In this document: positions 2-26,699 of the stretch, one piece after another | Numbering within the stretch: the stretch's first letter is position 1 | Layout of the letters: each line of letters opens with the position of its first letter | NCBI GenBank assembly: GCA_049324395.1 | Contig: JBMOOY010000056.1 | Span: forward strand, 518-64,517 | DNA length: 64,000 nt | Direction: 5' to 3' | From: Pseudomonadota bacterium | GTDB taxonomy: Bacteria > Pseudomonadota > Gammaproteobacteria > Xanthomonadales > Xanthomonadaceae | Program-made: the position numbers and the translations under genes | The notes under the pieces: model-generated | Seen by the model: the letters and a program-made list of their open reading frames with translations, nothing else | Database searches by the model: none | What the model was told of the DNA's origin: nothing

Positions 2-1222
2 GCGCCCTGGATCGACGGCACGATCGTCTACGTCACCAAGCCGTTCGGACAGATCTTCCTCAACCTGCTGTTCATGATGGTGGTGCCGCTGATGTTCTCG
101 GCGCTGGTGCTGGGCGTGGCCGAACTCGGCGACATCGCCAGCCTCGGCCGGCTCGGATGGAAGACGCTGCTCTACACCGCCACCGTCACCGGCGCCGCGG
201 TCGGCATCGGTCTGGTGATGGTCAACCTGCTGCAACCCGGCACCCATCTCGAGCCCGGCCTGATCGAGCAGGCGATGAACAGCAATCTCGCCAAGGCCGG
301 CGAGATCGTGAACAAGGGCAGCGAACTGAAGTTCATGGACCTGCTGGTCAACATCGTCCCGAAGAACATCGTCGGCGCGATGGGCGACGACAGCAAGAAG
401 CTCGGCATCGTGTTCTTCGCGCTGATGATCGGCATCGGCCTGGTGATGAAGCCGACCCCGGGCACGCAGGCGTTCAAGAACGCGCTGCACGGCCTGTTCG
501 AGATCTGCATGCATCTGATCGGCATGTTCATCAAGCTCGCGCCGTACGCCGTCGCCTGTTTCATGTTCACGCTCTGCGCGCAACTCGGCCTCGACGTGCT
601 GATGAGCCTGGCCTGGTTCGTGGTCACGGTACTGTTGGCGCTGGCGATCCACGGTTTCGTCGTGCTGCCGCTGTGGGTGCGGTTCATGGGCGGCATGTCG
701 CCGCGCGCGTTCTTCCGCGGCAGCCAGGAAGCGCTGCTGACCGCGTTCGCCACCGCTTCGTCGACCGCGACCCTGCCGGTGACCCTGCGCGTGGCCGAGG
801 AGAACCTCAAACTGCCGCGCAAGGTCTCGCGTTTCGTGCTGACGGTCGGCGCCTCCGCGAACCATCACGGCACCGCGCTGTTCGAAGGCATCACCGTGCT
901 GTTCCTCGCCCAGGTCTACGGCATCGAGATGGGCGTCGGACAGCAGTTGCTGGTGCTGGCGCTGTGCATCCTCGGCGGCATCGGCACCGCCGGCATTCCG
1001 TCCGGTTCGCTGCCGGTGATCGCGATGATCTGCACCATCATCGGCATCAAGCCCGAAGGCATCGGCATCATCCTCGGCGTCAATACCTTCCTCGATATGT
1101 GCCGCACGTCACTGAACGTCGGCGGCGATCTCGCGACCGCGGTCGTGGTCGCGCATCGCAGCGGAGAGCAGGAGGTGCAAGACGCCGCGCTTCCGGAGAA
1201 TCTGGACGACATCGTGCGCTGA
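2..1222 (+). CDS. Dicarboxylate/amino acid:cation symporter (DAACS, GltP/GltT-like), 5' end outside the window
   Basis: Frame is open from base 2 (APWIDGTIVYVTKPFGQIFLNLLFMMVVPL). Contains AFATASSTATLP, the ANHHGTALF variant of the NMDGT motif, and LDMCRTSLNVGGD. Confidence 0.93.
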   Translation, partial: APWIDGTIVYVTKPFGQIFLNLLFMMVVPLMFSALVLGVAELGDIASLGRLGWKTLLYTATVTGAAVGIGLVMVNLLQPGTHLEPGLIEQAMNSNLAKAGEIVNKGSELKFMDLLVNIVPKNIVGAMGDDSKKLGIVFFALMIGIGLVMKPTPGTQAFKNALHGLFEICMHLIGMFIKLAPYAVACFMFTLCAQLGLDVLMSLAWFVVTVLLALAIHGFVVLPLWVRFMGGMSPRAFFRGSQEALLTAFATASSTATLPVTLRVAEENLKLPRKVSRFVLTVGASANHHGTALFEGITVLFLAQVYGIEMGVGQQLLVLALCILGGIGTAGIPSGSLPVIAMICTIIGIKPEGIGIILGVNTFLDMCRTSLNVGGDLATAVVVAHRSGEQEVQDAALPENLDDIVR

Positions 1223-1308
1223 AACGCGCTTGTGGGGGCGTTCTGGCGCTGGCAGAATCCGGCCGAGAGCGCCCGTTCGGGCGCGGTGCGCGCACAAGGA
1301 GATCCGCC

Positions 1309-1743
1309 ATGCTGAAACTGTTCGGAACGACCCTGCTCCTGATCGCCGCAGGCGCCGCCGCGGCGGGCGAAAAGAAGCCCTGCGAAACCAACTACACGCA
1401 GGAAGGCAAGTTCATGACCGGCCGTCGCTTCAGCACCTGGGACGTGGTCCCGGGCGTGTCGCTGGCCACCGCATTCAAGCGGATCTCCAGCGAGGGCACG
1501 AAGTCCGGCCTGCAGATCGCCTCCAGCGACCAGAAGACCGGCACCATCTCCTTCATGCAACAGAACGGCGGCCAGATCCTCGGCGGCGGCAGCGTGAACC
1601 TGCCCTGGAACGTCGCGATCGAAGCGCAGGGCAAGGACGTCAAGATCACGGTCACCAAGACCACCCCGGGCGGTTACAACACCAGCGCCGACTTCCAGAA
1701 GGAGTCGATGTGCGCGGTGATCGACGCGGCGCGCAATCCCTGA
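1309..1743 (+). CDS. Secreted/periplasmic hypothetical protein (144 aa)
   Basis: RBS AAGGAG precedes ATG 1309. Signal-peptide-like MLKLFGTTLLLIAAGAAAA, two Cys, GC3-rich codons. Confidence 0.8.
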   Translation: MLKLFGTTLLLIAAGAAAAGEKKPCETNYTQEGKFMTGRRFSTWDVVPGVSLATAFKRISSEGTKSGLQIASSDQKTGTISFMQQNGGQILGGGSVNLPWNVAIEAQGKDVKITVTKTTPGGYNTSADFQKESMCAVIDAARNP

Positions 1744-1753
1744 ATCGCGAGTC

Positions 1754-1823
1754 GCATGCGCCGAACGGCATGCGGTGAACAGCATGCGGTGAACAGCATG
1801 CGGTGAACAGCATGCAGTGAACA
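1754..1823. repeat. 14-bp tandem repeat, consensus GCATGCGGTGAACA, 5 units (a degenerate sixth follows)
   Basis: Units start at 1754 (GCATGCGCCGAACG), 1768, 1782, 1796 (three identical) and 1810 (GCATGCAGTGAACA). No spacers. Confidence 0.95.
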
Positions 1824-1844
1824 GCCTCCGGTAAATCGCAAGTC

Positions 1845-1902
1845 GTCGCGATGCCGGCGTTCGCGCCGGGATCGCGACAGCGAAGCGCCGCGCTTCGGCG
1901 CG
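1845..1902 (+). other. Two adjacent stem-loops with TTCG loops upstream of the effector gene
   Basis: GTCGCGAT-G-CCGGCG-TTCG-CGCCGG-G-ATCGCGAC (1845-1878) and CGCGC-TTCG-GCGCG (1889-1902). Confidence 0.55.
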
Positions 1903-1957
1903 ACCCGAGCGTGGACGTCGCGGCCTGCCGTCTGCGCGATCCACAAGGAGAGGGAAA

Positions 1958-3220
1958 ATGCCAACGCCCGAAGAGATGCTGGACGACATGACGCGCGACT
2001 TCATCCAGGAAGTCAACGTGATACGGCGCCAGAAAAAACAGCCGGTTCTGTCGGACCGGGCCCAGGGCGTCCTGCAGGATCTGTTGCAGCAGCCCGGCGG
2101 CGCGCGCGAACACCTGCTGCCGGCGATCGAAAGCGGCAACCTGCAGATGTTGATGACGTCCGTCGGCGCCGGACAGGGGATGTACGCTCCGGGCGTCAGG
2201 GCGCTCGGCGTCAATCCGGACTCCCTCGAGCAGGCCGGCGCCGATCCCGCGATCGCGTACAACCTCAATTTCACGCTGGCCCACGAAAGTCGCCATGCGC
2301 GCGATCGCAACGAGATCGTGGACATGACCGAGACGATGCTCGACGCGGTCATCGCCAAGGCCGAGTCCCCGGATCTGCCGCACGACTACACCCAGATCGC
2401 CCGCGACTATCTGCAACGCGATCGCGTGCTCGAGCAGCGGGCGGAACTCGCGGGACTCAATGCCCATGTGAGCAGGGTGCTCGCGGAGGTCGGCCCGGAT
2501 GCGACCTTGCGCGATGTCTACCAGCGATCGCCGAAGGACATGGCGGCGTACGTCGACGTGACGCCCGGCGAAGGCATGGGCGCGCCCGATACGTACGCCT
2601 ACAAGCCCGGATTCGTGGTCGCGCCGAACGGCTTGCATGTCGACGCGACGCATGCGAACTCGCTGGATGCGATGGGCAGATATTTCTACGACGAGCAGAA
2701 TTACGACTGGCGCCAGGGGCTGAGAGCGGTGCTGGACGCGGTCAATACCGCCGAGTCGGGGCACTCGGCGGTACGCGATCCGCGCTCGCCGCCGCAGATC
2801 GACTTCGCCGCGCTGCAGGTCGGGCCGCCGCCGGATGGGTTGATCAGGAACAGCCTGCAGCAGGTAGTGGACAGCAGCCTGCCGCCGCCCAACGATCACC
2901 GCAACCCGGATCACGCGTACTTCGCATTCCTGCAGGCGCGATTGCCCGGCGCGAGCGACGAGACGGTCGCCTACGCCATGATGGAAGCCAAGCGCGGCGG
3001 TTTGAACGATGCCTCGCGCGTCGTCGCGGATCAGGTCGGTCAGGCGCATGACGGGACGATCTGGATCGGCGGGACCCGTGGGGAGCGCATCGAGGTCGAC
3101 CCCGCCCGGGCGACCCCGATGATCAAGACGACGCAGGCGCTGGACACGCACGCTTTCGAGGAGTCGCAGCGCCAACTGCATGCGCCGCCCAAGCAGTCTG
3201 GCGGCTGCGTCATCCTCTAG
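1958..3220 (+). CDS. Putative T4SS effector: HExxH metallopeptidase-like domain, XVIPCD-like C-terminal domain, terminal CaaX (CVIL)
   Basis: LAHESRH plus downstream EQRA. DHRNPDHAYF...EAKRGGL...IWIGG resembles the XVIPCD (DPRHPDHALY...AKxxGL). Ends KQSGGCVIL*. Strong RBS, no signal peptide. Confidence 0.72.
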   Translation: MPTPEEMLDDMTRDFIQEVNVIRRQKKQPVLSDRAQGVLQDLLQQPGGAREHLLPAIESGNLQMLMTSVGAGQGMYAPGVRALGVNPDSLEQAGADPAIAYNLNFTLAHESRHARDRNEIVDMTETMLDAVIAKAESPDLPHDYTQIARDYLQRDRVLEQRAELAGLNAHVSRVLAEVGPDATLRDVYQRSPKDMAAYVDVTPGEGMGAPDTYAYKPGFVVAPNGLHVDATHANSLDAMGRYFYDEQNYDWRQGLRAVLDAVNTAESGHSAVRDPRSPPQIDFAALQVGPPPDGLIRNSLQQVVDSSLPPPNDHRNPDHAYFAFLQARLPGASDETVAYAMMEAKRGGLNDASRVVADQVGQAHDGTIWIGGTRGERIEVDPARATPMIKTTQALDTHAFEESQRQLHAPPKQSGGCVIL

Positions 3221-3589
3221 CAGGCGATGCAGCAGATGAGACGGCCGCAGGCGTCGGCGGCGCCCCGACATCGTGCGCGACCATCGCGATAGTGCGCGCC
3301 GACCGGGCACCGGGGCATGCGGCGCCGCGATCGGCCCCGCATCCGGCTCACGCCAACCCGACACGGGCACGGGCGCCGCGCCCAGGACGCAGCGCATCTC
3401 CGCCAACGACCTGCAGCCCCGCGCTTCTTCGCCGACCCTGTCGTTCTTTTTGCGATCAGATCCTTGACCGCCGCGTTGTCCAACGCGGTTCCCCGTAGAT
3501 CGCATCAGGGTTGCGTCTAAGGACGTTTCGGTGGTGCGCTGCCGCTTCCGCCAGGGCTGTATGATTCCGATGGGCACAGGGGAGGCTCC

Positions 3590-6500
3590 ATGCGCAGGGA
3601 CGGCGTCGGGACGCAGGGGCGCGTCTTCGGTTGGGTGGTCGGATTGGCGGCGATGTGCGCGAGCGCGCTCGCGGCGCCGACGGCTGCGCGGGTGGAGGTG
3701 TCGTCCGGTCTCGCGCTCGATCCCGCGCCGGAGCCGCGTTTCGTGCGCTTCGGGGCGGAACAGGGGTTGCCTGCGCTCCTCAACGATATGGTGGTCGACC
3801 GGCGCGGCGATCTCTGGCTCGCGACAAGCGACGGGCTCGCGCGCTACGACGGCGACGGGTTCCGGTTCTGGCGTCGCACGATCGGTTCCGATGCGTCCCT
3901 GCAGCAAAACGACGTGATGGCGCTCGCCCTGGACGTCGACGACAGGTTGTGGGTCCTCAACTCGGGTGGGCTCGTGGTGCTCGACCGCGCGCGTCGCGGC
4001 ATCGCGCAGATCGTGTTCGACGGCGAACATGCGGTCTGCGGCCGCGAGATCGCCGCGATGGCGGCCGATCCGGAGGGCGGCGTGCGCATCGGCACCTATG
4101 ATGGCGCCGTGTGCGCGATCGGGCGCGATGGACGCATCCGTCGGCTCCTGCCTGCAGACGGCGGGGCGGGGCTCGGCGCCAGCGCGGTGGTGTTGCGGTC
4201 GCTGCCCGACGGACGCTGGCTGATCGCCACCGATGCGGGCCTGTGGCGTCTGCACGGGACGCGGCTGGAACCGGTCGCGCCGGAGCGCCTCGGCGACGCG
4301 TACGTGTTCGCGATCACCGACGACATCGACGGCGGCCTGTGGATCGGCACCGATCGCGGCCTGTTCGCGATGGCGCAGGACGGCACGATCCGTCCCGCAC
4401 CGTGGCGATTGCCCGAACTGGCGAACAACGCGGTCGTCCGTCGCGATCCGCAGGGGGGTTATTGGATCGGCACCGCCGCCGGACTGTTCCGCGCCGTTTC
4501 GCGCGACGCGCCCGCGTTGCCCGTGCATGGCCGTCGTCACGCCGATGGGCTGAGCAGCGGCGTCTTCGGCATGCTCATCGATCGCGAAGGCGGACTCTGG
4601 GCGGCCTCGTATTCGCAGGGACTGTCGTATCTGCCGCCGGGTCACGCGCGCTTCGCCAGCATCGACGAGATCGACGGCGTGCCGCTGGAGCGCATCGATC
4701 CGGCGGCGGCGATCGGCGACGGCGCGGGCGGTTTCTGGATCGTCGGCAGCCGCAGGCTCTACGCGCTGCCTGCGGGCGCATCGCGACCGCAGGCGGTCGT
4801 CGATGCGAGCGCGCTCGGCGTGGAATGGCTGCTCGCCGCGACCCGATGCGCCGATGGACGCCTGTGGCTGGCCAGCTTCGATCGCGCGTTCGGTTTCGAC
4901 CCGCGTTCGAAGCGCGTCGGACCGACGATCCGTTATCCCGACGACGGATCGCACACGCCGCACTCCCTGTGGTGCGATTCCGCGGGGCGATTGTGGGTCT
5001 CGCTCTACGGCGGCGCCCTGCGCGTGCACGACCGCGATGGCCGGACGCATCGCGCGCTCGCGGCCGAGGCCGTGCTCGGTGGTCCGGTCGCGGATTTCGC
5101 GCGACTCGACGCCGGCCCCGACGGCGTGCCGTGGACCAGAGACGTTCAAGGGTTGCGGCGATGGGACGGTCGTCGCTTCGTTCCGGTCGCGCTGCCCGGG
5201 GGCGAACGCGTGGACGCCTTTGCGTTCGTTGCGCCGCGAACGCTGTGGGTGGCGCGCTACGGCAGTCTCGAACGCTACGAATGGCGCGACGGGCGGGCGC
5301 GGCTGCGCGAACGCATCGACGGCGAAGCGCTGCCCCCGGTGCAGGTCGCCGGCATGCTCGCGTCGGCCGGGCAACTGTGGATGACCACGCCGCGCGGTCT
5401 GCTGCGTTTCGAACCTGCGTCCGGACGCGTGCGGATGTTCGGGGTGCGCGATGGTCTGCCCGACATCGACTTCGCGCTTGGGCCACCGGTGCAGAATGCG
5501 GTCGGGCCTGCGCTCGCCCTCTCCAAGCGCGGCATCGTCCTGTTCGATCCGGGCTTGTCGCTGCCGCCGCCGCGCGCGCCGGCGCTGTCGGTGGAAGCCA
5601 TCGACCTGCGACGCGGCGAAGACACGATCGCGTTCGAGGACGACGGTGCGGCCGTGACGATGCGCCCGGGCGACCGCGATCTGCGGGTGGCCGTGCGTGT
5701 GCGCTCGCTCGCCGATCCCGCCGCGCATCGTTACCGCTTCCGACTGCGCGGTTACGATCCGGACTGGGTCCGCCAGGGCGAGCGCGGCGAACGCGGCGAG
5801 CGCGTGTTCTCGTCGCTGCCGCCGGGTCGCTACGCGCTCGAGTTCCAGGGCGCGGACGCAGACGGCGTGTGGTCGTCGACGTACCGGATTCCGATCCTCG
5901 TCGAAGCGCCTTGGTGGCGACGCTGGTGGGCGCTGCTGCTCTATGCGACGCTCGCATCGGCGCTGGTGTGGTGGCTCGCCTATCTGGATCGCGTGCGCCT
6001 GCGCCGCAATCACAACTACCAGTTGATCAAGCAGAAGCGCGAACTCGCCGAACAGGCGTCGCTGGCGAAGAGCCGGTTCCTCGCCAACCTCGGCCACGAG
6101 ATCCGCACGCCGATGACCGGCGTCCTGGGCATGAGCGAACTGCTGCTGTCGACCCCGCTGGATGCGCGACAGCAGGATCGCATCCATGCGATCCGCCGCG
6201 CCGGCGAGCATCTGCTGCGATTGGTCAACGATGCCCTCGACCTCGCGCGCATCGAGGCCGGGCGCTTCGAACTCGACGAGGCCGATTTCGCGCTCGACGC
6301 CATCGTCGAGGATGTCGTCGGCCTGATGCGGCCGCTCGCGGAACGCAAGGGTCTGCGCTTCGTCGCGACCGTCGACGCCGATGTCCGTGGCGGTTGGCGC
6401 GGCGATCCCACCCGCGTGCGCCAGATCCTGCTGAATCTGCTCGGCAATGCGATCAAGTTCACCGAGCGCGGCGAGGTGTCGCTCGCGATCGCGTCGCTGG

Positions 6501-7159
6501 CGCCGCGCGGTCTGCGCTGCGTCGTCTGCGACACCGGGCCGGGTCTGGATGCCGAACAGCAGCGTCGACTGTTCCGCCGTTTCGAGCAGGCCGAAGGCGC
6601 GCGGACCGCCAGTCGTTACGGCGGCAGCGGGCTGGGGCTCGCGATCTGCCAGGAACTTGCGGTGGCGATGGGCGGCGGGATCGAGCTGTCGAGCGCGCCG
6701 GGCGAGGGCGCATGTTTCACCGTGCGTCTGCCGCTGGCGCCCTCGGCCGCGCCGATCGAGCTGCCGCCGGCCCCGTACCGCGAAGCCGCCGCGCGCGACG
6801 TGCTGCTGGTGGAGGACGACCCCATCGTCGCCGACGCCCTCACCGGCCTGCTGCAGACGCAGGGGCATCGCGTCGTGCACGCCGGCCATGCGCTCGCGGC
6901 GATGACCGCCCGCGCGACGCGGACTTTCGATCTGGCCTTCGTCGATCTCGATCTGCCCGGCATGGATGGTCTCTCGCTCGCCCGGCAACTGCGCGCGCAG
7001 GGCTTCGATCGGCCGTTGATCGCGATCACCGCCCGCGCCGACGCCGAGGCGGAGCCGCAGGCGATGGACGCGGGTTTCGATGCGTTCCTGAGAAAACCGC
7101 TGACCGGGACCCTGTTGGCGGAGGCGATGCTGCTCGGCGCCGGAGAAACGGCCCGGTGA
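3590..7159 (+). CDS. Hybrid sensor histidine kinase/response regulator with beta-propeller and Y_Y_Y sensor region
   Basis: Signal peptide, repeated GGLWIGT-type propeller repeats, YRFRLRGYD, TM segment, H-box GHEIRTPM, LLGNAIKFT, DTGPG, GSGLGL, C-terminal receiver (LLVEDD, FVDLDLP, KP). Confidence 0.93.
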   Translation: MRRDGVGTQGRVFGWVVGLAAMCASALAAPTAARVEVSSGLALDPAPEPRFVRFGAEQGLPALLNDMVVDRRGDLWLATSDGLARYDGDGFRFWRRTIGSDASLQQNDVMALALDVDDRLWVLNSGGLVVLDRARRGIAQIVFDGEHAVCGREIAAMAADPEGGVRIGTYDGAVCAIGRDGRIRRLLPADGGAGLGASAVVLRSLPDGRWLIATDAGLWRLHGTRLEPVAPERLGDAYVFAITDDIDGGLWIGTDRGLFAMAQDGTIRPAPWRLPELANNAVVRRDPQGGYWIGTAAGLFRAVSRDAPALPVHGRRHADGLSSGVFGMLIDREGGLWAASYSQGLSYLPPGHARFASIDEIDGVPLERIDPAAAIGDGAGGFWIVGSRRLYALPAGASRPQAVVDASALGVEWLLAATRCADGRLWLASFDRAFGFDPRSKRVGPTIRYPDDGSHTPHSLWCDSAGRLWVSLYGGALRVHDRDGRTHRALAAEAVLGGPVADFARLDAGPDGVPWTRDVQGLRRWDGRRFVPVALPGGERVDAFAFVAPRTLWVARYGSLERYEWRDGRARLRERIDGEALPPVQVAGMLASAGQLWMTTPRGLLRFEPASGRVRMFGVRDGLPDIDFALGPPVQNAVGPALALSKRGIVLFDPGLSLPPPRAPALSVEAIDLRRGEDTIAFEDDGAAVTMRPGDRDLRVAVRVRSLADPAAHRYRFRLRGYDPDWVRQGERGERGERVFSSLPPGRYALEFQGADADGVWSSTYRIPILVEAPWWRRWWALLLYATLASALVWWLAYLDRVRLRRNHNYQLIKQKRELAEQASLAKSRFLANLGHEIRTPMTGVLGMSELLLSTPLDARQQDRIHAIRRAGEHLLRLVNDALDLARIEAGRFELDEADFALDAIVEDVVGLMRPLAERKGLRFVATVDADVRGGWRGDPTRVRQILLNLLGNAIKFTERGEVSLAIASLAPRGLRCVVCDTGPGLDAEQQRRLFRRFEQAEGARTASRYGGSGLGLAICQELAVAMGGGIELSSAPGEGACFTVRLPLAPSAAPIELPPAPYREAAARDVLLVEDDPIVADALTGLLQTQGHRVVHAGHALAAMTARATRTFDLAFVDLDLPGMDGLSLARQLRAQGFDRPLIAITARADAEAEPQAMDAGFDAFLRKPLTGTLLAEAMLLGAGETAR

Positions 7160-7729
7160 TCGCGGACGTGCGAACCACGCATGGCCATCGACGTCGTCGA
7201 TTGGCGGTCGTCGGTGCGCGTTCAGTGCGGGCCGTGGCGATTGATGTCGTCGATGAAGGGGGCGTCGCTTTCGCGATCGAGGATCGGACGCGATTTCGCA
7301 TCGGATGATCGACGCCGTCGATCATGCGTCGTGCGCACGAGCGCATCGGTTCGCGCGCTTCGGTCGTGCGCCGCATCCGTCCCGAACGCGCATGATCGCG
7401 CGTCCTGCAAAATGCACGAATCCGCGTCGCGATCCTGTGACGCGCGATGCGCTCATCGCGTGCGTCTCGTAAGGCATCGCGTTTGATGCAGGGCCGCTTT
7501 CGCGCGGGATTCAAGAAGTGCGATGGTCGTCGACGAAGACGCATGCCGGGATCAACACCATTGCGGCCGAATCGACGGAGTCGTATCTCGTCCCCGATCG
7601 ATTCACGAAGGCTTCGATGGATCCTCCCGCCGATGGCGGTCGGGATCGGGCTTCTCTTCTCCGCGCGCGCAGCCGGGCGACAGCCCGGAGCGAACGGGAA
7701 TCGCCACACGACAATCAGGAATTCGTCAC

Positions 7730-7978
7730 ATGAACAGATTCAGGAATACCGGTTTCGCGATCGCCCTGCTCGGTCTCGCCATGACGTCGTCGACGGAAGT
7801 GCGCGCCGAAGCTTTGCCTACCCTCGAGTGCAACGAGAGCACCTACGGCGCTTTCCAGCGGACGTCGGAAGTCGCTCCGGAAGGCACCTATATCTATTTT
7901 TACGGTTGTACCGAATACGGATGGATGTTGTTCGGCACCGAGTTCTGCGACAACGAAGGCAACTGCTACAGCGATTGA
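7730..7978 (+). CDS. Small secreted Cys-rich protein (82 aa)
   Basis: AGGA RBS before ATG 7730. Signal peptide MNRFRNTGFAIALLGLAMTSSTEVRA. Mature part has 4 Cys and is acidic/aromatic. Confidence 0.8.
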   Translation: MNRFRNTGFAIALLGLAMTSSTEVRAEALPTLECNESTYGAFQRTSEVAPEGTYIYFYGCTEYGWMLFGTEFCDNEGNCYSD

Positions 7979-8232
7979 GACGGGGCGTCAACGCGCCCGA
8001 ACGAAATCGCGCAGTCGCGCATCGCGAAGTCCGTCCCGGGTTTTCCCGGGGCGCGACCGGTTCGGCGTCAGGTACGTGTCGAAACCGGTCGATGCCGATG
8101 TTGGACCTTGCCCGCGCCACTGGCGCGTAGGCGTCGATGCGGAGCCGTAGGCGATCGCGCGCCATGCCGAAGCGGTGTCGTAGGACGGAACCGCCGAAGG
8201 CGATTCCTTCGTCGCGGGCCCGTCGTGGAGAC

Positions 8233-8862
8233 TCAGTCCGTTTCGAGGCCGATATTCGCCGCCGCCGCAGGACCGGGCCGGTAAACCCGTTCGCGCGGCA
8301 GCGCCAGCGATGCGCAATCGCCATGGACATGAGGATGTTGTTCGCGCACGAGCGGGGTGACGTCCTCGATGTCGAGCAGATCTTCCTCGCCGTAACGGCG
8401 CAGCATGCGGCCGCGCAGGCCCAGCTGGATCGCGCGGCGCGCCAGCGGGCGGCCGTGCGGGTCGTGGTCGGGATCCCATTGCAGGCGTACGTCGGAGTGC
8501 GCCACGGCGTGCTGCCACTGATCGTGCGTGGCGTAGCGCGACGCGTCGAACGACGACGGCACCGCGGTGCGCAGCAGTTCGTCGAAGAAATCGCGGCGCA
8601 GCCGCACGGCGAGGATGCGTTCCTGACCTTCCTTCGTCGCCCAGCCGGCGCGATACATCATCCAGAGGAAGTTCGGCTTGATCCAGCTCATGCGGTTGTA
8701 GCTGAACTCGCCGCCGAAACGTTGGTGCTCGACCGCGTATTCGGCGATGGCCGGGCGGTAGGCCTGGTAGACGATGATGCTGGTGTCGTCGTACTGGGCG
8801 AGAATGTGGCGGCCGGAGTGCGGCCAGTGAGCCTGCTGTTGTGCGTACTTTTCGATTGTCAC
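8233..8862 (-). CDS. DUF4291 family protein
   Basis: ILAQYDDTSIIVYQAY, RMSWIKPNFLWMMYRAGW, VRLQWDPDHD, RRAIQLGL. Confidence 0.88.
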   Translation of the reverse strand: MTIEKYAQQQAHWPHSGRHILAQYDDTSIIVYQAYRPAIAEYAVEHQRFGGEFSYNRMSWIKPNFLWMMYRAGWATKEGQERILAVRLRRDFFDELLRTAVPSSFDASRYATHDQWQHAVAHSDVRLQWDPDHDPHGRPLARRAIQLGLRGRMLRRYGEEDLLDIEDVTPLVREQHPHVHGDCASLALPRERVYRPGPAAAANIGLETD

Positions 8863-17920: not shown

Positions 17921-18663
17921 GCGGGCTCCGGAGACAGGGACTCGGAAGGGGATGGGAACTTCGACGGCCGCGGCCCGAACAGCGCACTGCCGACCCGGAC
18001 CAGGGTCGCGCCTTCGGCGATGGCCAGGGCGTAGTCCTCGCTCATCCCCATCGACAGGGTGTCGACCTCGGGATGGCGGGCGGCGAGGACGTCGAACAGG
18101 GCGCGCATGCGCCGGAACGCGTCCCGGCGCCGTCCCATGTCCGGGTCGGGCGAGGGGATCGCCATCAGCCCGCGCAGGCGCAGCGCCGGCCGGGCGGCGA
18201 TCGCCTCGGCGATGGCGTCGATCTGCTCGGGCCGGCAGCCGTGCTTGCTGGCCTCGTCGTCGATGTTCACCTGGATCAGCACGTTCAGCGGCGTCTGCCC
18301 CGGCGCGCGATGCTTCGCCAGCGCCTCGACCAGTTTCGGCCGATCCACGGTCTGCACCCAGTCGAAGGCGGCCGCGGCGTCGCGCGCCTTGTTCGACTGC
18401 AGATGGCCGATCAGATGCCATTCGATGCCCAGTCCCCCGAGCGCCGGCTGCTTGGCCAGCGTCTCCTGGACATAGTTCTCGCCGAACGCCACCGGGCCCG
18501 CGGCCGGTCGTGCGCGCAATGCGGCGGCGACCTGCGCGATCTCGTCCGCCGTCCGGGTCTTGCTCACCGCCAGCAGTCGCGCCGGCGCGCGTCCGGCGGC
18601 GGCTTCGGCCATGCCGGCGAGAAGGGCGTCGAGCGCGGAATGCGGCGGCGGTGCGTCGGTCAT
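17917..18663 (-). CDS. yggS: YggS family PLP-binding protein
   Basis: LLAVSKT, FGENYVQE, WHLIGHLQSNK, LSMGMSED, VRVGSALFG. Confidence 0.96.
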   Translation of the reverse strand: MTDAPPPHSALDALLAGMAEAAAGRAPARLLAVSKTRTADEIAQVAAALRARPAAGPVAFGENYVQETLAKQPALGGLGIEWHLIGHLQSNKARDAAAAFDWVQTVDRPKLVEALAKHRAPGQTPLNVLIQVNIDDEASKHGCRPEQIDAIAEAIAARPALRLRGLMAIPSPDPDMGRRRDAFRRMRALFDVLAARHPEVDTLSMGMSEDYALAIAEGATLVRVGSALFGPRPSKFPSPSESLSPEPA

Positions 18664-18844
18664 GGCGTGCGTTCGGGTGCGACCGGAGTCGCGGAATGGC
18701 GCAGGAAAGGTGAAGTGTATGTCGAACCGGCGCCCGGCCGATGCCGCCGCCTGCGCCCCCGGGTGCAAATCCCGGGGGCGGGGCTATACTCCGGCGCATC
18801 CCGGGTCTTCCGACCCGCACGACATCGCACCGCGGGGAGATCGC

Positions 18845-19882
18845 ATGGATATCGCCGAACTGTTGGCGTTTTCGGTCAAGAACAAAGCCTCGGACCTGCA
18901 TCTGTCCGCCGGCCTGCCGCCGATGATCCGCGTCGATGGCGACGTGCGCCGGATCAACATCCCCGCGCTGGACCACAAGCAGGTCCATGCGCTGGTCTAC
19001 GACATCATGTCGGACAAGCAACGCCGCGACTACGAGGAATTCCTCGAGTGCGACTTCTCGTTCGAGATCCCGGGCCTCGCCCGCTTCCGCGTCAACGCCT
19101 TCAACCAGAACCGCGGCGCCGGCGCCGTGTTCCGGACCATTCCCTCGGAAGTGTTGACCCTGGAAGACCTGGGGTGCCCGCCGATCTTCCGCGAACTCAT
19201 CGACCAGCCGCAGGGTCTGATCCTCGTGACCGGGCCGACCGGTTCGGGCAAGTCGACCACGCTCGCGGCGATGATCGACCACATCAACAAGAACGAATAC
19301 GCGCACATCCTCACCGTCGAGGACCCGATCGAATTCGTCCACACCTCGCAGAAGTGCCTGATCAACCAGCGCGAGGTCCATCGCGACACCCACGGCTTCA
19401 ACGAAGCGCTGCGTTCGGCCCTCCGCGAAGACCCCGACTACATCCTGGTCGGCGAAATGCGCGACATCGAGACGATCCGTCTCGCGCTCACCGCCGCGGA
19501 AACCGGCCACCTCGTGTTCGGCACCCTCCACACCAGTTCGGCGGCGAAGACCGTCGACCGCATCATCGACGTGTTCCCCGCCGGCGAAAAACCGATGGTG
19601 CGTTCGATGCTGTCCGAATCGCTGCGCGCGGTGATCTCGCAGGCGCTGCTGAAGAAGGTCGGCGGCGGCCGCACCGCGGCGTGGGAGATCATGGTCGGCA
19701 CCCCCGCGATCCGCAACCTGATCCGCGAGGACAAGGTCGCGCAGATGTATTCGTCGATCCAGACCGGCCAGAACTTCGGCATGATGACCCTCGATCAGCA
19801 CCTGCAGGATCTGGTCAAGCGCAGTCTCATCACCCGCCAGCAGGCCAAGGGCTACGCCAAGGACAAGCGGTTGTTCGAGTGA
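18845..19882 (+). CDS. pilT: Type IV pilus retraction ATPase
   Basis: MDIAELLAFSVKNKASDLHL, GPTGSGKST, ALREDPD, GTLHTSSA, AIRNLIRE. Confidence 0.98.
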   Translation: MDIAELLAFSVKNKASDLHLSAGLPPMIRVDGDVRRINIPALDHKQVHALVYDIMSDKQRRDYEEFLECDFSFEIPGLARFRVNAFNQNRGAGAVFRTIPSEVLTLEDLGCPPIFRELIDQPQGLILVTGPTGSGKSTTLAAMIDHINKNEYAHILTVEDPIEFVHTSQKCLINQREVHRDTHGFNEALRSALREDPDYILVGEMRDIETIRLALTAAETGHLVFGTLHTSSAAKTVDRIIDVFPAGEKPMVRSMLSESLRAVISQALLKKVGGGRTAAWEIMVGTPAIRNLIREDKVAQMYSSIQTGQNFGMMTLDQHLQDLVKRSLITRQQAKGYAKDKRLFE

Positions 19883-19952
19883 CCGCCGTTCGGCTCGCCC
19901 GCCGCCTAGGCGATCGGCGCGCGACCCGCTCCCCGCATTCCGGAGTTCCGTC

Positions 19953-21083
19953 ATGAGCAGCATCGACTTCACTTCCTTCCTCAAGCTGATGGCGCACCAG
20001 AAGGCGTCCGACCTGTTCATCACCGCGGGCATGCCGCCGGCGATGAAGGTGCACGGCAAGATCTCGCCGATCACCCAGAACGCGCTGACGCCGCAGCAGA
20101 GCCGCGATCTGGTGCTGAACGTGATGACGCCGGCGCAGCGCGAGGAGTTCGAAAAGACCCACGAGTGCAACTTCGCGATCGGCGTCTCCGGCGTCGGCCG
20201 CTTCCGCGTGAGCTGCTTCTACCAGCGCAACCAGGTCGGCATGGTGCTGCGCCGGATCGAATCGAAGATCCCCACGGTCGAGGAACTGGCGCTGCCGCCG
20301 ATCATCAAGACCCTGGCGATGACCAAGCGGGGCATCATCATCTTCGTCGGCGCCACCGGTACCGGCAAATCGACCTCGCTGGCGGCGATGATCGGCTACC
20401 GCAACCAGAACTCCTCGGGCCACATCATCACCATCGAGGACCCGATCGAATTCGTGCACAAGCACGAGGGCTGCATCGTCACCCAGCGCGAGGTCGGCAT
20501 CGACACCGACAGCTGGGAGAACGCGCTGAAGAACACCCTGCGACAGGCGCCGGACGTGATCATGATCGGCGAGGTGCGCACCCGAGAGGGCATGGACTAC
20601 GCCATCGCCTTCGCCGAAACCGGCCATCTGGTGCTGTGCACGCTGCACGCCAACAACGCCAACCAGGCGATGGACCGCATCATCAACTTCTTCCCCGAGG
20701 ATCGCCGCAGCCAACTGCTGATGGACCTGTCGCTGAACATGAAGGGCGTGGTCGCGCAGCAGCTGATTCCGACGCCCGACGGCAAGGGCCGCAAGGTCGC
20801 GATGGAAATCCTGCTCGGCACGCCGCTGGTGCAGGACTACATCCGCGACGGCGAGATCCACAAGCTGAAGGAGGTCATGAAGGAATCGACCAACCTCGGC
20901 ATGAAGACATTCGATCAGGCCCTGTTCGAGTTGTATCAGGCCGGCGAGATCACCTACGAGGACGCGTTGCGCTACGCCGACTCGCAGAACGAGGTGCGCC
21001 TCAAGATCAAGCTCGCCCAGGGCGGCGACGCCCGCACCCTGGCCGCCGGCCTCGACGGCGTGGAAGTGGCCGAGGTTCGCTGA
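19953..21083 (+). CDS. pilU: Twitching motility ATPase
   Basis: GATGTGKSTS, LRQAPDVIMIGEVR, TLHANNA. Follows pilT. Confidence 0.97.
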   Translation: MSSIDFTSFLKLMAHQKASDLFITAGMPPAMKVHGKISPITQNALTPQQSRDLVLNVMTPAQREEFEKTHECNFAIGVSGVGRFRVSCFYQRNQVGMVLRRIESKIPTVEELALPPIIKTLAMTKRGIIIFVGATGTGKSTSLAAMIGYRNQNSSGHIITIEDPIEFVHKHEGCIVTQREVGIDTDSWENALKNTLRQAPDVIMIGEVRTREGMDYAIAFAETGHLVLCTLHANNANQAMDRIINFFPEDRRSQLLMDLSLNMKGVVAQQLIPTPDGKGRKVAMEILLGTPLVQDYIRDGEIHKLKEVMKESTNLGMKTFDQALFELYQAGEITYEDALRYADSQNEVRLKIKLAQGGDARTLAAGLDGVEVAEVR

Positions 21084-21140
21084 CGCATCCCGCCCGTTCC
21101 CGGCCGCTTGTCGCCGTGAAATCGGGGCCGACAAGGAGAA

Positions 21141-21938
21141 GTGGGCATGCACGCTGCACGGCTCGAGGATGAGAAGGTTTCGCTGGCGATCGGGACCGGC
21201 GGTGGCGTCGGCCGCCCGTGGCTGGCGGAGGGCGAGCCCCTCGAGCCCGGCCAACCGCGGCGCCCCCCGGTCACCTCTCCGCGGGACGAGGGTTCGCAAT
21301 CGACCGAACAGGCCCCGGGGTCGGAATCCGGACCCGTCCTGCGGGCGCATCCGTCTCCGCGGGACGGCGAACCGGCGCCGCGACCGGATCTCGAATGGTG
21401 CCCGGTGCTGCCGGAGAAGGACCCGGCGCCGCCGTCCGTCGAATGGAAGGCCGACCCCTGTGCGCTGCTCTCGTCCGAGGGCCGTGCGCAGGGTGGGACC
21501 TGGGGGCCGGAGACGCCGTTGCTGACGGATCCGAAGCACCCGGACCACGCGCTGTACGAGCAGGCCCTGTCGCAATTGCGGCAGCCCGGGCTTTGCGACC
21601 GATTCAACTCTCAGGCGCAGATGGCGCGCGCCGCTGCGGCCATCGCTGCCGAGGCCAAGGAGGCCGGCCTGCGCAGGATCGACGATGTGGTCGTCGGTAC
21701 GGACGGCGGGAAATTCATCGCGATCGAGGGTCCGAATCCGTATGCGCCCGAAGCCCGTCGCGCTGCGGTGGATTACCGGGAGGCGCTGACGCAATCCGTC
21801 GAGCAGAGCACCGCGAAGGTCACGCCGGAGGCCTGTCGGCCGGGTCCGGGAGGGCCGGGCAGGGAGGGGGATCTGCTCTCCGCGCTGGTCCCGCCGTCGG
21901 AATCGATCGAACCCGCGCGATCCTCGCTCCTGCGTTGA
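21141..21938 (+). CDS. XVIPCD-containing protein with a Pro-rich low-complexity N-terminus
   Basis: LLTDPKHPDHALYEQA...AAAIAAEAKEAGLRRIDDVV...FIAIEG...ALTQSVEQST is a canonical XVIPCD. RBS AAGGAG, start GTG 21141 or ATG 21147. Confidence 0.8.
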   Translation: MGMHAARLEDEKVSLAIGTGGGVGRPWLAEGEPLEPGQPRRPPVTSPRDEGSQSTEQAPGSESGPVLRAHPSPRDGEPAPRPDLEWCPVLPEKDPAPPSVEWKADPCALLSSEGRAQGGTWGPETPLLTDPKHPDHALYEQALSQLRQPGLCDRFNSQAQMARAAAAIAAEAKEAGLRRIDDVVVGTDGGKFIAIEGPNPYAPEARRAAVDYREALTQSVEQSTAKVTPEACRPGPGGPGREGDLLSALVPPSESIEPARSSLLR

Positions 21939-22014
21939 GGCTTCGCCCGGAACTTCCAGATCGCGACACGGTCGGATTCCGCGGGTGCGACGGAACGCGC
22001 TCTGGGATGGAACG

Positions 22015-22060
22015 ACGAACGCGCCGTCCGTGCGCCGCCTGCGGGCGGCGCGTTCGTTTC
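22015..22060 (+). terminator. 16-bp stem-loop, probable terminator after the XVIPCD gene
   Basis: ACGAACGCGCCGTCCG (22015-22030) pairs with CGGGCGGCGCGTTCGT (22042-22057) with one G-U pair. Short T tract only. Confidence 0.55.
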
Positions 22061-22141
22061 CGGCACGGCCGCGGGTTACAGTAACGATCCACGAACGCGG
22101 GCCGGCCACGCCGGACGCACTGACAGGACGAGGGCAGGCGG

Positions 22142-23878
22142 GTGAATGCAGTTGTCGAAGCGGGCTCGGAGATCGACGCGGACGCCGTTTCGGCGCCGGG
22201 CGCCGGCGATCGCATCGTCGCCGCGCTGATCGAGAAGGGTCGCCTGAAGGAAGCCGATCTCGCCCGTGCCCAGCGCGTGCAGGAGGACACCGGCGGGGAA
22301 CTGCTGGCGTTGATCGCCCGCCTGGGGCTGGTGTCCGAGCGCGATCATGCCGAGGCCTGCGCCGAGGTGCTGGCCCTGCCGCTGGTGGCGGTCAAGGAAT
22401 TGCCCGATCTGCCGCCGGAGGGCGTCGAACTCACCACGAAGTTCATGAAGCAGTTCGTCGCGGTCCCGGTGGGCGAAAGCGAGTCCCACGTCGCCGTGCT
22501 GATGGCCGATCCCCAGGACGCCTATACCCTCGACGCGATCCGGCTCGCCACCGGACGCGATGTCCGGCCGCTGGTCGGGCTGCGCTCCGAGATCGGCGAT
22601 CTGATCGAGCGCTGGCACGGGCAGGGGCGCAGCGCGATGGGCGCGATCGTCGAGACCGCCGAGGGCGAGGCCGGCGACATCGAGGACGTGGAGCACCTGC
22701 GCGACCTGGCGTCGGAAGCGCCGGTCATCCGCCTCGTCAACCTGATCATCCAGCGCGCGGTCGAACTGCGCGCCTCGGACATCCACATCGAACCGTTCGA
22801 GAACCGGCTGAAGGTGCGCTACCGCATCGACGGCGTGCTCGAAGAGGGCGAGAGTCCGCCGGCCAACCTCACCGCGGCGGTCATTTCGCGCGTGAAGATC
22901 ATGGCCAAGCTCAACATCGCCGAGCGCCGCCTGCCGCAGGACGGCCGGATCATGATCCGTGTCCAGGGCAAGGAGTTGGACCTGCGCGTCAGCACGGTGC
23001 CGACCGCGCACGGCGAATCGGTGGTGATGCGTCTGCTCGACCGCGAAACGGTGGTCTTCGATTTCCACAAGCTCGGCTTCACCGACGACTTCCTGCCGCA
23101 GTTCCAGCGCGTGCTGGAGCAGCCGCACGGCATCCTGCTGGTCACCGGTCCGACCGGCTCGGGCAAGACCACCACGCTCTACACCGCGCTGTCGAAGCTC
23201 AACACGCCCGACGTCAAGATCATCACCGTCGAGGACCCGGTCGAATACCAGATCGAGGGCATCAACCAGATCCAGGCGAAGCCGCAGATCGGGCTCGATT
23301 TCGCGCATGCGCTGCGCAGCATCGTGCGCCAGGACCCGGACATCATCATGATCGGCGAAATGCGCGATCTGGAAACGTGCAAGATCGCGATCCAGTCCGC
23401 GCTCACCGGCCACCTGGTGCTGTCCACGCTGCACACCAACAACGCCGCCGGCGGCATCACCCGCCTGCTCGACATGGGCGTCGAGGACTATCTGCTGACC
23501 TCGACCATCAACGGCATCCTCGCCCAGCGCCTCGTGCGCCGGCTGGAGCCGACCCACGCCGAGCGCTACGAGGCGTCGCCGGAGGAGATCGAGAAGTTCA
23601 ACCTGCGTCGTTACCGTCCCGAGGGCACGATCCATCTGTATCGCCCGCGCGGTTCGGCGATCGCGCCCAGCGGTTACGTCGGCCGGACCACGATCATGGA
23701 ATTCCTGGTCATGAACGACGAGATCCGCCGCGCGGTGATGCGCCATGCCGGCATGGGCGAGCTCGAGCAGCTGGCCCGCCAGGCCGGGATGCGCACGATG
23801 TACGAGGACGGCATCGCCAAGGCGCTCGCCGGGGTGACCACGATCGAGGAAGTGCTGCGCGTGACCGAGGACGCCTGA
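22142..23878 (+). CDS. gspE: T2SS ATPase GspE (XpsE)
   Basis: SDIHIEP, LPQDGR, GPTGSGKTTT, LRSIVRQDPD, LSTLHTN. Confidence 0.97.
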   Translation: MNAVVEAGSEIDADAVSAPGAGDRIVAALIEKGRLKEADLARAQRVQEDTGGELLALIARLGLVSERDHAEACAEVLALPLVAVKELPDLPPEGVELTTKFMKQFVAVPVGESESHVAVLMADPQDAYTLDAIRLATGRDVRPLVGLRSEIGDLIERWHGQGRSAMGAIVETAEGEAGDIEDVEHLRDLASEAPVIRLVNLIIQRAVELRASDIHIEPFENRLKVRYRIDGVLEEGESPPANLTAAVISRVKIMAKLNIAERRLPQDGRIMIRVQGKELDLRVSTVPTAHGESVVMRLLDRETVVFDFHKLGFTDDFLPQFQRVLEQPHGILLVTGPTGSGKTTTLYTALSKLNTPDVKIITVEDPVEYQIEGINQIQAKPQIGLDFAHALRSIVRQDPDIIMIGEMRDLETCKIAIQSALTGHLVLSTLHTNNAAGGITRLLDMGVEDYLLTSTINGILAQRLVRRLEPTHAERYEASPEEIEKFNLRRYRPEGTIHLYRPRGSAIAPSGYVGRTTIMEFLVMNDEIRRAVMRHAGMGELEQLARQAGMRTMYEDGIAKALAGVTTIEEVLRVTEDA

Positions 23879-23932
23879 GGCGTCGGCGGCGGTGCAGGGG
23901 GGCGGAACGGGGGTTCTGATGAGGGGATGCGC

Positions 23933-24817
23933 ATGAAGAAGGGAGTTCTCGTCGCCGTCGCGATCGCGACGGTCGCCGTCGCCGCGGCGGCCGGCTGGTG
24001 GTTCGGACGCGAAGGTTCGGGACCCGGCTCGGCCGCGGACGCGTCCGAAGCGGCACGACCGCTGACCGCCGCCGAACGCACCGCGCGGGCCGAGCGCCTG
24101 CGCAAGGCGCGAGAGCACCGCCACCATCTCTGGCGCGAAGCGTCCTACGTCGAGATCCGCCAGGCGGCGACCGATGGCGATGCCGTCGCCCAGCGCCGGC
24201 TGTCCGAGATCTACGAGGACTGCGCCGCCTATGCCGGACCGATGAGCGGCGCGATGCGCATCATCGGCTCGATGGCCAAGGCCAAACCCGCCTCCGAACG
24301 GACGGTGATCGGGATCTACAACGACTACAAGCGTTTCTGCGTGCAGGCCGAAGCCGATCTGCGCAGGAATCCCGGCGCCGCCGACTATTGGCTGCATCGC
24401 AGCGCCAAATCCGGCGATCTCACCGCGGAAATGCGCTATTTCGGCAGGACGGTGGTCAATCTCGACCCGGAGCAGGTGCGGTATTTCGTCGGCAAGCTGA
24501 AGGCTTCGCCCGAGCCGGACGCGATGTTCGAGATGTCGCTGCTGTTGCCGAAACTGCGCGAGGAATGGCCGGACGCCGCCCAGGCGCCCGCCTTCAACAA
24601 CGCCGTCGCCCAGCACGCCTGGGCAGTCGCGGCCTGCCGCGCGGGCCACGACTGCGTGGCCGGTTCGCGGGTCATGAATCTGCTCTGCGTGGGCATGCTT
24701 TCCTGCGACCAGCCCGATTACGAACGCTATCTGGCCCTGACCACGGGGTACCTCGAACAGCGGGCGACCGTCGAGCGGCTGGTCGCGATGATCGACCGCG
24801 ACATCCTCGAGCGCTGA
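23933..24817 (+). CDS. Membrane-anchored hypothetical protein with Sel1-like motifs and 6 Cys, between gspE and gspF
   Basis: N-terminal TM segment. AATDGDAVAQRRLSEIY and YWLHRSAKSGDLTA resemble Sel1 repeats. CRAGHDC and CVGMLSC motifs. Confidence 0.75.
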   Translation: MKKGVLVAVAIATVAVAAAAGWWFGREGSGPGSAADASEAARPLTAAERTARAERLRKAREHRHHLWREASYVEIRQAATDGDAVAQRRLSEIYEDCAAYAGPMSGAMRIIGSMAKAKPASERTVIGIYNDYKRFCVQAEADLRRNPGAADYWLHRSAKSGDLTAEMRYFGRTVVNLDPEQVRYFVGKLKASPEPDAMFEMSLLLPKLREEWPDAAQAPAFNNAVAQHAWAVAACRAGHDCVAGSRVMNLLCVGMLSCDQPDYERYLALTTGYLEQRATVERLVAMIDRDILER

Positions 24818-24955
24818 GCCGCCCCGCCCGGGCGGCTCCGGGGAACCTTCGACGCCCGGCGGGCTCCCATTCGTCGGTGGCGGCCGATATCCTCCCACCC
24901 CTGACCGGACGCCCGCCCGCGGGCGTTCCCGCCCACGACCTTTCGATTCGCGCCC

Positions 24956-26167: not shown

Positions 26168-26229
26168 GCGCTGCCGCGACCTTCCTCCGATCCTTCGAAT
26201 CCACCACCCTTCACAACGGAACGACCGAC

Positions 26230-26670
26230 ATGCGCCACACACGCCCGCTTCGCCGCACCGCGCCGCACCGCTCGCAGGCCGGCATGACCCTGATCGAGAT
26301 CATGATCGTCATCGTGCTGATCGGCGGCGTGCTCGCCGTGGTCGGCGGCTCGATCTTCGGCAACAAGGACAAGGCCAACCACAAGCTCGCCCGCATCCAG
26401 GTCGACAAGGTGGCCGCCATGGTCGAGCAGTACAACGACGACGTCGGCGAATATCCGCGTTCGCTCGAGGACCTCGTCGCCGATCCGCAGATCAACGGCT
26501 GGCTCGGTCCCTACGCCCAGGAAAAGGATCTCAAGGATCCGTTCAACAAGCCGCTGCAGTACACCGTGCCCGGCGAGAACGGCGCGTTCGACCTCATCAG
26601 CTACGGCAAGGACGGCCGCCCCGGCGGCAGCAGCGTCGACGGCGACATCCGCTACGGTGACGCCGGCTGA
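26230..26670 (+). CDS. gspG: Major pseudopilin GspG
   Basis: Prepilin motif QAG|MTLIEIMIV, GWLGPY, DPFNKP, LISYGKDG. Confidence 0.96.
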   Translation: MRHTRPLRRTAPHRSQAGMTLIEIMIVIVLIGGVLAVVGGSIFGNKDKANHKLARIQVDKVAAMVEQYNDDVGEYPRSLEDLVADPQINGWLGPYAQEKDLKDPFNKPLQYTVPGENGAFDLISYGKDGRPGGSSVDGDIRYGDAG

Positions 26671-26699
26671 TTCGCTGCCGACGTTCCGGGTCCGATGCG

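Follow-up and report, generated by a model that had tools for sequence, protein, structure and literature searches.

The 64,000-nucleotide stretch of contig JBMOOY010000056.1 considered here, referred to below as the window, encodes a protein of 420 residues that is very likely a metallopeptidase effector of the Xanthomonadales type IV secretion system (X-T4SS), with a C-terminal secretion domain of the XVIPCD type. The protein terminates in a Cys-aliphatic-aliphatic-X (CaaX) box, which is invariant in the clade of uncultured Lysobacteraceae proteins to which it belongs. This box is probably a eukaryotic prenylation signal, carried by a type IV secretion system (T4SS) effector that has been retargeted to fungi or protists and is prenylated by the host. 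The chance is somewhat better than even that the effectors of this clade are built for eukaryotic victims, with a tail that acts first as a T4SS translocation signal, and then as a CaaX box that pins a zinc protease on the membranes of the victim.

The effector's C-terminal domain was compared with other secretion domains through a profile of its last 121 residues (A2) and an alignment of 19 unrelated XVIPCD-type tails (A3). The A2 profile retrieved 97 matches at E<=1e-3 from 1.84 billion representative proteins, and approximately 65 of these matches were single and always located at the extreme C-terminus of the protein. These proteins range from 111 to 1198 residues in length, and have varied N-termini, including lipase-like (GHSLGG), peptidoglycan-binding, and M23-like sequences, a modular pattern that points to XVIPCD effectors, of which it is the hallmark. 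The alignment of A2 with A3 in hhalign returned a probability of 99.6% (E 1.9e-24), with profile columns 10-109 aligned, while a hidden Markov model (HMM) made from A3 alone had the effector open reading frame (ORF) as its one match (E 4.2e-21) across the six-frame translation of the window. The hhalign comparison of the domain with the canonical XVIPCD protein encoded elsewhere in the window gave 63% (E 6.9e-5). The Pfam family PF20410 matches 4 of the 19 A3 tails (best E 3.1e-5), and the XVIPCD of the effector is, on the evidence of these profiles, a divergent variant branch that is poorly detected by Pfam.

The AlphaFold2 model of the effector, built from a 26-sequence family alignment, has a mean predicted local distance difference test score (pLDDT) of 91.8 and a predicted template-modelling score (pTM) of 0.85. 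The predicted elements of the domain are two helices (residues 319-328 and 334-346), three strands (355-362, 368-372, and 377-380), and a further helix (388-408), and the order of helix-helix-strand-strand-strand, followed by a helix and a floppy end, appears in both the full and the C-domain models. The helix-helix-strand-strand-strand topology has been solved for XAC2609 (PDB 7MU9; Oka et al., PMC8740702). Matches of the C-domain profile to the “Cake” and “Pizza” designer beta-propellers were rejected as artefacts, which come from adding up weak repeats across 26 residues, and the multi-stretch A2 matches among the representative proteins reflect the same repeat artefact. One protein, P0056, has two XVIPCD-type domains in tandem, with the canonical PF20410 domain at residues 462-556 being followed by a shorter variant at the C-terminus (residues 586-685); P0048, P0054, and P0061 resemble it by eye only, through an upstream PGHP...HSEK segment.

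Homologues of the effector are confined to 26 clusters, with identities of 43-63%, in a search of 5.8 billion proteins. A Cys is found exactly at position -4 in all 25 members of the clade with an intact C-terminus, even though these proteins are 43-59% identical. The entropy across the 25 tails is 0 bits at -4 and 0.63 at -1, rising to 2.2-2.8 at -5 and -6, and the length of the linker ahead of the Cys also differs among the members. The a1 residue may be A, L, V, S, R, or I, while a2 is solely V, L, I, or M. At X, 21 members have M and the other four have L, forming the tails CAVM, CLMM, CVIL, CALM, CLVM, CSLM, CVLM, CIVM, and CRVM. Among 119 other XVIPCD or family proteins, none has a Cys at -4, and just two contain one anywhere in their final ten positions. 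In the window, the effector is the sole gene with a Cys at -4 among the 38 predicted, and the sole fit to the pattern C-x-[AVILMF]-[MLSQACF] among the 303 ORFs of 100 residues or more in the six frames. Judged by these counts, the CaaX box of the effector is beyond chance.

The original prediction, made from the letters of this stretch, had picked out an HESRH motif, a downstream EQRA, a C-terminal block resembling the Xanthomonadales VirD4-interacting domain, and a terminal CVIL, all of which were verified in this ORF. The three sequence-level checks made, of the four that it suggested, also had the outcome it anticipated, with the C-terminal domain falling in the XVIPCD superfamily, the CaaX box being conserved amid variable neighbours, and no such box being present in the other XVIPCD proteins sampled.

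The enzymes that modify CaaX boxes are tolerant at a1 and take an aliphatic residue at a2, while X determines the lipid, with Met leading to the addition of farnesyl, and Leu, of geranylgeranyl. The predicted boxes of the clade match this prenyltransferase specificity at a1, a2, and X. The rule is consistent with PMC9231725, whose supplements present CAVM and CALM as predicted to be prenylated and cleaved (p ~0.99, yeast CaaX model), with CLMM, CLVM, CVLM, and CALM among the entries placed under prenylation-positive in the table used to train the yeast model. The tail is predicted by AlphaFold2 to be disordered and exposed, and positions -5 to -10 include at least one Lys or Arg in 24 of the 25 clade members, with an acidic residue in a single member.

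In the XVIPCD proteins, positions -6 to -1 contain Arg and no acidic residues, with an enrichment in Met, Pro, Leu, Ala, Gly, and Ser, and removing the final six residues abolishes killing, as described in the study of XAC2609, which ends in SRSMSM (Oka et al., PMC8740702). The effector tail, EESQRQLHAPPKQSGGCVIL, fits the criteria for an XVIPCD tail, which are a variable stretch of Gln, Ala, and charged residues and a hydrophobic or small end with at least one basic residue and no acidic residue (criteria of PMC8740702). Because the clade tails retain these hydrophobic or small and basic properties, little would have to change for an ordinary XVIPCD tail to acquire the CaaX box, and the tail of the clade may serve as both a translocation signal and a CaaX box.

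The N-terminal half of the protein leads to the same group of effectors. A search with a profile of the first ~290 residues (A5) recovered 79 proteins, 30 of which have a precomputed PF20410 domain, including three, from Xanthomonas campestris, Stenotrophomonas, and Pseudoxanthomonas, to which NCBI has given the name “XVIPCD domain-containing protein”. The toxin domain is thus common to the effector and to recognised X-T4SS effectors (X-Tfes), and, with both halves of the protein being placed with the XVIPCD proteins, the effector therefore belongs among the effectors of this system. The conservation of the domain was assessed in an 18-sequence alignment in which identity descends to 23% (A4/A5), where D143, T145, and N168 are invariant, together with the putative zinc-binding and catalytic residues (H109, E110, H113, and E159), as is E266, while the candidate third ligand is found in a predicted helix (residues 145-178). 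The persistence of invariant ligands down to this level of identity indicates that the zinc motif is beyond chance, and the pattern of residues is, from the alignments, that of a gluzincin-like zinc peptidase.

Effectors of the HExxH type had already been listed among the X-Tfes in a review (Sgro et al. 2019). The Pfam and NCBIfam scans of the N-terminal domain did not recover any family above the threshold, with Tox-MPTase2 (E 0.16), DUF6782 (E 0.031), and M48 (E 0.089) all being below it, and Foldseek found no significant PDB neighbour of the fold, the best relevant match, to the minigluzincin selecase (4qhf), being weak and local (E 3.4, template-modelling score of 0.45 on the target). The effector shares with the minigluzincins and gluzincin toxin peptidases (selecase, Tox-MPTase2, DUF6782, and M48) the placing of the HExxH in one helix and of a conserved Glu in a later one, together with the weak local matches near the active-site helices. 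It differs from these families in that all the matches are sub-threshold (E 0.03-3.4), and in its ~300-residue domain, which has the additional invariant residues D143, T145, N168, and E266. In the syntenic subclade of the family, 14 of the 16 members whose sequence extends over the zinc motif read HECRH there, so that the motif includes a Cys (alignment A1, residue 111 column), whereas HESRH is found in the window protein, in P0009 and P0012, and throughout the second subclade.

The genes of the X-Tfes are usually preceded by a cognate immunity gene (X-Tfi; Sgro et al. 2019). In three of the four non-CaaX relatives examined, a conserved gene ends 12-14 bp upstream, and in two of these the product has a lipobox. 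In X. campestris (locus L019, CP066937), this gene encodes a 209-residue lipobox protein and ends 14 bp ahead of the relative of the effector, while in Stenotrophomonas (L020 and L021), it encodes a 205-residue lipobox protein and ends 12 bp ahead. In a metagenomic relative (L017), the gene ends 13 bp ahead and encodes a 165-residue protein in which a signal peptide is not evident, and the upstream proteins of all these relatives are homologous to one another. No homologue of these immunity proteins was found either in the window or in 12 loci of the clade (L001-L012), where the neighbours differ from locus to locus (YceI/M23, metK/DUF4256, or the core small gene/tkt). These comparisons of gene order indicate that the cognate immunity gene was lost in the CaaX clade, and that the gain of the CaaX appears to coincide with the loss of the immunity partner, as would be expected if the target had moved out of the bacteria. 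The non-CaaX relative in L019 is located in an island (3357-8432) flanked by insertion sequence genes (DDE transposase), in which there are also a duplicate of the immunity-like lipoprotein gene (6006-6620, 57% identity) and one more PF20410 protein (7530-8432).

The gene immediately upstream of the effector in the window, which the original prediction had suspected of encoding a rescue factor, turned out to be a core gene. Its product has two Cys residues, a highly conserved end (SMCAVIDAARNP), and no Pfam family, and the family comprises 54 clusters from Lysobacteraceae metagenomes, approximately twice the number for the effector, always between the SDF transporter gene and the transketolase or effector gene. 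It was rejected as the immunity gene, given that it is 67-68% conserved in the syntenic loci, is present in three loci that lack the effector (L013, L014, and L015), and is absent near the second subclade. A tblastn search of these three loci recovered no remnant of the effector.

All the steps of the mechanism proposed here are inferred; what the sequences show is the domain homologies, the conservation of the catalytic motif, the strict conservation of the CaaX and its restriction to one clade, and the loss of the immunity gene. The extreme C-terminus of an XVIPCD, hydrophobic and basic and needed for translocation, would have been converted into a CaaX box in a clade of uncultured Lysobacteraceae. 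The effector would be produced without a signal peptide, and its XVIPCD fold recognised by VirD4, with contact-dependent injection then delivering it into a eukaryotic cell, which may be a fungus, an amoeba, or another biofilm protist. In this cell, the host farnesyltransferase, in the case of the Met-ending tails, or geranylgeranyltransferase I, in that of CVIL, would lipidate Cys417, after which Rce1 would cut off VIL, and ICMT would methylate the new end. The lipid and the nearby Lys or Arg would keep the protease on the cytosolic face of the host membranes, where a membrane-proximal target would be cleaved. The producer would need no immunity protein if the target, or the localisation that activates the enzyme, exists in eukaryotes only.

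The homology of the XVIPCD, the conservation of the CaaX, its restriction to one clade, and the loss of the immunity gene all lend partial support to the earlier suggestion of a trans-kingdom effector. The resemblance to the Rab1A tail that it noted found no support. The last 30 residues have no sequence match in the PDB at E<=10, and KQSGG is not conserved in the homologues. The resemblance would, in any case, be irrelevant to the CaaX enzymes, because the CC tails of the Rab proteins are processed by RabGGTase with REP.

A number of observations weigh against prenylation as the role of the tail, and most of them would suit an ordinary antibacterial X-Tfe, in which the Cys-aliphatic-aliphatic-Met/Leu ending is a lineage-specific translocation signal, and immunity is either unlinked or unneeded, since the enzyme would be inactive in the cytoplasm of the producer. 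The XVIPCD tails already carry Arg and are rich in Met, Leu, and small residues, with their six terminal residues needed for killing (PMC8740702), which leaves the Cys alone as the distinctive part, and its conserved spacing may be due in part to phylogenetic inertia. The closest non-CaaX relatives resemble typical antibacterial toxin-immunity pairs with upstream lipoproteins, which would be compatible with an antibacterial role and an unlinked immunity gene here, and the fourth non-CaaX relative, P0029, likewise has no adjacent immunity-like gene, with a response-regulator gene upstream. The CaaX clade, moreover, is known exclusively from metagenomes and metagenome-assembled genomes (MAGs). 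An antibacterial role is nevertheless unlikely, given that Cys is not enriched in XVIPCD tails, as the 119 proteins sampled attest, but is invariant in the clade beside the variable residues at -5 and -6, and that a1, a2, and X fit the specificity of the prenyltransferases, while the immunity gene was lost just where the Cys was gained.

The C-terminal Cys may alternatively serve the enzyme itself, either as a cysteine switch that caps the zinc, with latency replacing the immunity protein, or as a disulfide or metal site formed after export. Cysteine-switch latency is established for the pro-domains of the matrix metalloproteinases, a flexible tail of ~10 residues could reach the active site, and auto-inhibition would account for the loss of the immunity gene. 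This explanation is nonetheless quite improbable, given that AlphaFold2 leaves the tail undocked (pLDDT <50 for residues 412-420, to which the disorder in the model is confined), and that a zinc cap would need neither a Cys three residues from the C-terminus nor the aliphatic-aliphatic-Met/Leu found in 25 of 25 members. The variable length of the linker also fits a signal anchored at the C-terminus better than a contact that depends on geometry.

The remaining points that count against the proposed role concern the secretion domain itself. The PF20410 model falls below its threshold on the effector and misses 25 of the 26 family members, with one weak match (E 0.0087), while Foldseek searches of the PDB with the full and C-domain models did not have 7MU9 among the best matches, which were to unrelated folds (E 0.07-0.25). 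This structure was not matched by the C-domain profile or the generic XVIPCD profile in sequence searches of the PDB, and neither these searches nor those with the whole protein and the last 30 residues recovered any XVIPCD or Rab entry. In addition, no VirB or VirD4 protein was found among the 30 larger ORFs of the window scanned with Pfam. The XVIPCD membership of the C-terminal domain thus rests on sequence profiles. These negative results would favour a cytoplasmic or otherwise exported peptidase, in which the domain is no longer a T4SS signal and the CaaX-like end is functionless, but this is very improbable, since the domain is strongly conserved, the same variant ends many multi-domain toxins (lipases and peptidoglycan-binding proteins) with typical Gln-rich tails, a functionless tail would not retain an invariant Cys at 43-59% identity, and the sole apparently decayed copy is the one with Ser in place of the Cys.

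The effector has the general architecture of the Xanthomonadales X-Tfes, such as XAC2609 of X. citri and the proteins P0198 and P0192, from X. campestris and Stenotrophomonas respectively, with an N-terminal toxin domain and a C-terminal XVIPCD of ~120 residues, no signal peptide, and, in the proteins of the P0198 and P0192 type, the same metallopeptidase-like family in the N-terminal domain. The predicted succession of two helices and three strands also agrees with theirs, and is followed by a Gln-rich or charged tail of ~29 residues past the equivalent of Ser404, taken to be T391 (published common range, 26-42; PMC8740702). The effector differs from these proteins in its invariant CaaX, rather than endings like SRSMSM or GPSMTR, in the lack of an upstream cognate X-Tfi gene, and in its divergent XVIPCD, in which helices 1 and 2 are joined by a shorter loop, and which is below the Pfam threshold. 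The clade itself, unlike the other X-Tfes, is known only from uncultured Lysobacteraceae.

Prenylated bacterial effectors reportedly include SifA of Salmonella, an effector of the type III secretion system. In Legionella pneumophila, AnkB and the Pel/CMP proteins of the Dot/Icm system are lipidated by the host farnesyltransferase or geranylgeranyltransferase I, processed by Rce1 and ICMT, and anchored on host membranes (PMC13081727 and PMC2916131). The effector shares with AnkB and the Pel proteins a C-terminal CaaX with the Cys at -4, in its case a predicted prenylation site. There is no sequence relationship between them, and the effector has an XVIPCD signal for a VirB-VirD4-type X-T4SS, rather than Dot/Icm, with a protease-like cargo. 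Its producer, in contrast with the intravacuolar Legionella, would presumably be a competitor or predator that lives in the environment, outside other cells.

Delivery into eukaryotes by the X-T4SS is plausible, because transfer into yeast has been shown in Lysobacter enzymogenes, whose X-T4SS suppresses yeasts and filamentous fungi and carries LtdD, a DNase, as well as an XVIPCD fusion, into yeast cells (Lin et al., Sci Adv, 23 Sept 2026, PMC13600162). The authors of that study consider that LtdD probably targets fungi specifically (PMC13600162). Both LtdD (Le4579) and the effector are XVIPCD proteins that act in eukaryotes following contact-dependent T4SS delivery, which has been shown for LtdD and is proposed for the effector. 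The difference is that LtdD, a DNase of the HNH/EndoVII type, lacks any eukaryote-specific motif, whereas the effector carries a motif that is meaningful in eukaryotes only. The extension of the X-T4SS beyond bacterial killing, which the original prediction had put forward, is thus partly pre-empted by the delivery of LtdD into fungi, but that study makes no mention of CaaX or prenylation (PMC13600162), and a search of the literature found no work that joins either of these with XVIPCD, the X-T4SS, or the effectors of Lysobacter.

The X-T4SS has been viewed up to now as an antibacterial weapon, bar this one fungal-delivery study of 2026, and an immunity-less clade with an invariant CaaX would represent genomic evidence of X-T4SS effectors that evolved specifically for eukaryotes. 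If the interpretation proposed here is correct, the box would represent the first sequence signature exclusive to eukaryotes in an XVIPCD effector and the first hijack of CaaX processing outside the intracellular pathogens, which would widen the mimicry of host prenylation from Legionella and Salmonella to free-living biofilm bacteria. A “bacteria-killing” T4SS would then be turned routinely on grazers or fungi in biofilms, and an uncharacterised family of metallopeptidases that act on a eukaryotic substrate would be added to its arsenal. The tail of a secretion signal could, in evolutionary terms, become a host-modification motif through the gain of a Cys at -4.

The 26 clusters of the effector family have no functional names (five are labelled “hypothetical protein”) and no Pfam domain. 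Among the GTDB species representatives, the family is present in four MAGs, labelled Lysobacteraceae, Lysobacterales, Thermomonas, and uncultured Gammaproteobacteria, while DNA nearly identical to the effector gene is found in metagenomes from biofilm, freshwater, riverine, bioreactor, sediment, and groundwater sources. The CaaX clade is split into two groups by genomic position. The members of the first group, which are 52-63% identical to the query, lie between the gene of the 141-144-residue secreted protein and transketolase, in the BatD-SDF backbone, and those of the second (~45% identity) are located between the YceI and M23 peptidase genes, or between metK and DUF4256. The protein P0027 (189 residues) is N-terminally truncated and has many substitutions, with SVMM, rather than CxxM, at its end, which makes it the sole copy in the family with no Cys, and it appears to be a decaying copy.

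The features of the effector gene and of the two other genes of interest are listed in Table 1. The gene ends in the stop codon TAG (3218-3220), and the GC content at its third codon positions is 0.84, which is coding-like for a window with ~70% GC.

Table 1. Features of the effector gene and associated genes in the window.
Feature	Position	Strand	Basis and remarks
Upstream 144-residue secreted protein, core gene	1309..1743	+	Also present in the BatD-SDF-small gene-transketolase backbone without the effector
Shine-Dalgarno-like AAGGAGAG	1945..1952	+	5 nt ahead of the ATG at 1958; direct sequence reading
Effector gene	1958..3220	+	Complete ORF, stop included; product of 420 residues without a signal peptide
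N-terminal domain, ~300 residues, putative gluzincin-type zinc metallopeptidase	1958..2857	+	Profile A5; found solely fused to XVIPCD domains
HESRH, HExxH zinc-binding/catalytic motif (H109, E110, H113), residues 109-113	2282..2296	+	Invariant in A4 and A5
E159-Q-R-A (ExxA), candidate for the third zinc ligand	2432..2443	+	E159 invariant, A162 at least 90% conserved in A4/A5
XVIPCD-type domain, residues 309-408	2882..3181	+	hhalign, A3 HMM, AlphaFold2
Linker APPKQSGG, flexible, residues 409-416, one basic residue	3182..3205	+	Low pLDDT, variable sequence
CaaX box C417-V-I-L; X = Leu, predicted geranylgeranyltransferase-I type	3206..3217	+	Clade conservation; Cys codon 3206-3208
Second, canonical XVIPCD protein, 265 residues	21141..21938	+	PF20410, E 4.1e-22, 79 bits (cut-off 24.9)

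A scan of positions 1200-3700 for promoters and terminators found no signal above chance. The intergenic region on the 5' side of the effector gene contains 5.1 tandem copies of a 14-nt unit, GCATGCGGTGAACA (1754-1825), which was discarded as a conserved regulatory element, given that it is strain-specific, being found only in the window and the near-identical contig L005, and not in homologous loci. The next gene on the 3' side (3590-7159, forward strand) encodes a hybrid sensor kinase of 1189 residues, with Reg_prop/Y_Y_Y, HisKA, HATPase_c, and receiver domains. There has been a local rearrangement beside the effector, because the other syntenic loci have transketolase at the position of the sensor kinase.

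The genome appears, from the canonical PF20410 protein found in the same window, to encode at least one standard X-T4SS substrate, which is indirect evidence of the system. The N-terminal 129 residues of this second XVIPCD protein are of low complexity and have no domain, and there is no obvious immunity neighbour. It is possibly an orphan X-Tfe or the remnant of one. Its gene sits, in the region 18560-35120, between genes for PilT/PilU-like ATPases of the T2SSE family (18560-19882 and 19953-21083) and gspE. The latter forms part of a type II secretion cluster, with GspE (22142-23878), GspF (24956-26167), GspH (26700-27191), a PilN-domain protein (28954-30546), and the secretin GspD (31673-34219), and the region holds housekeeping genes as well.

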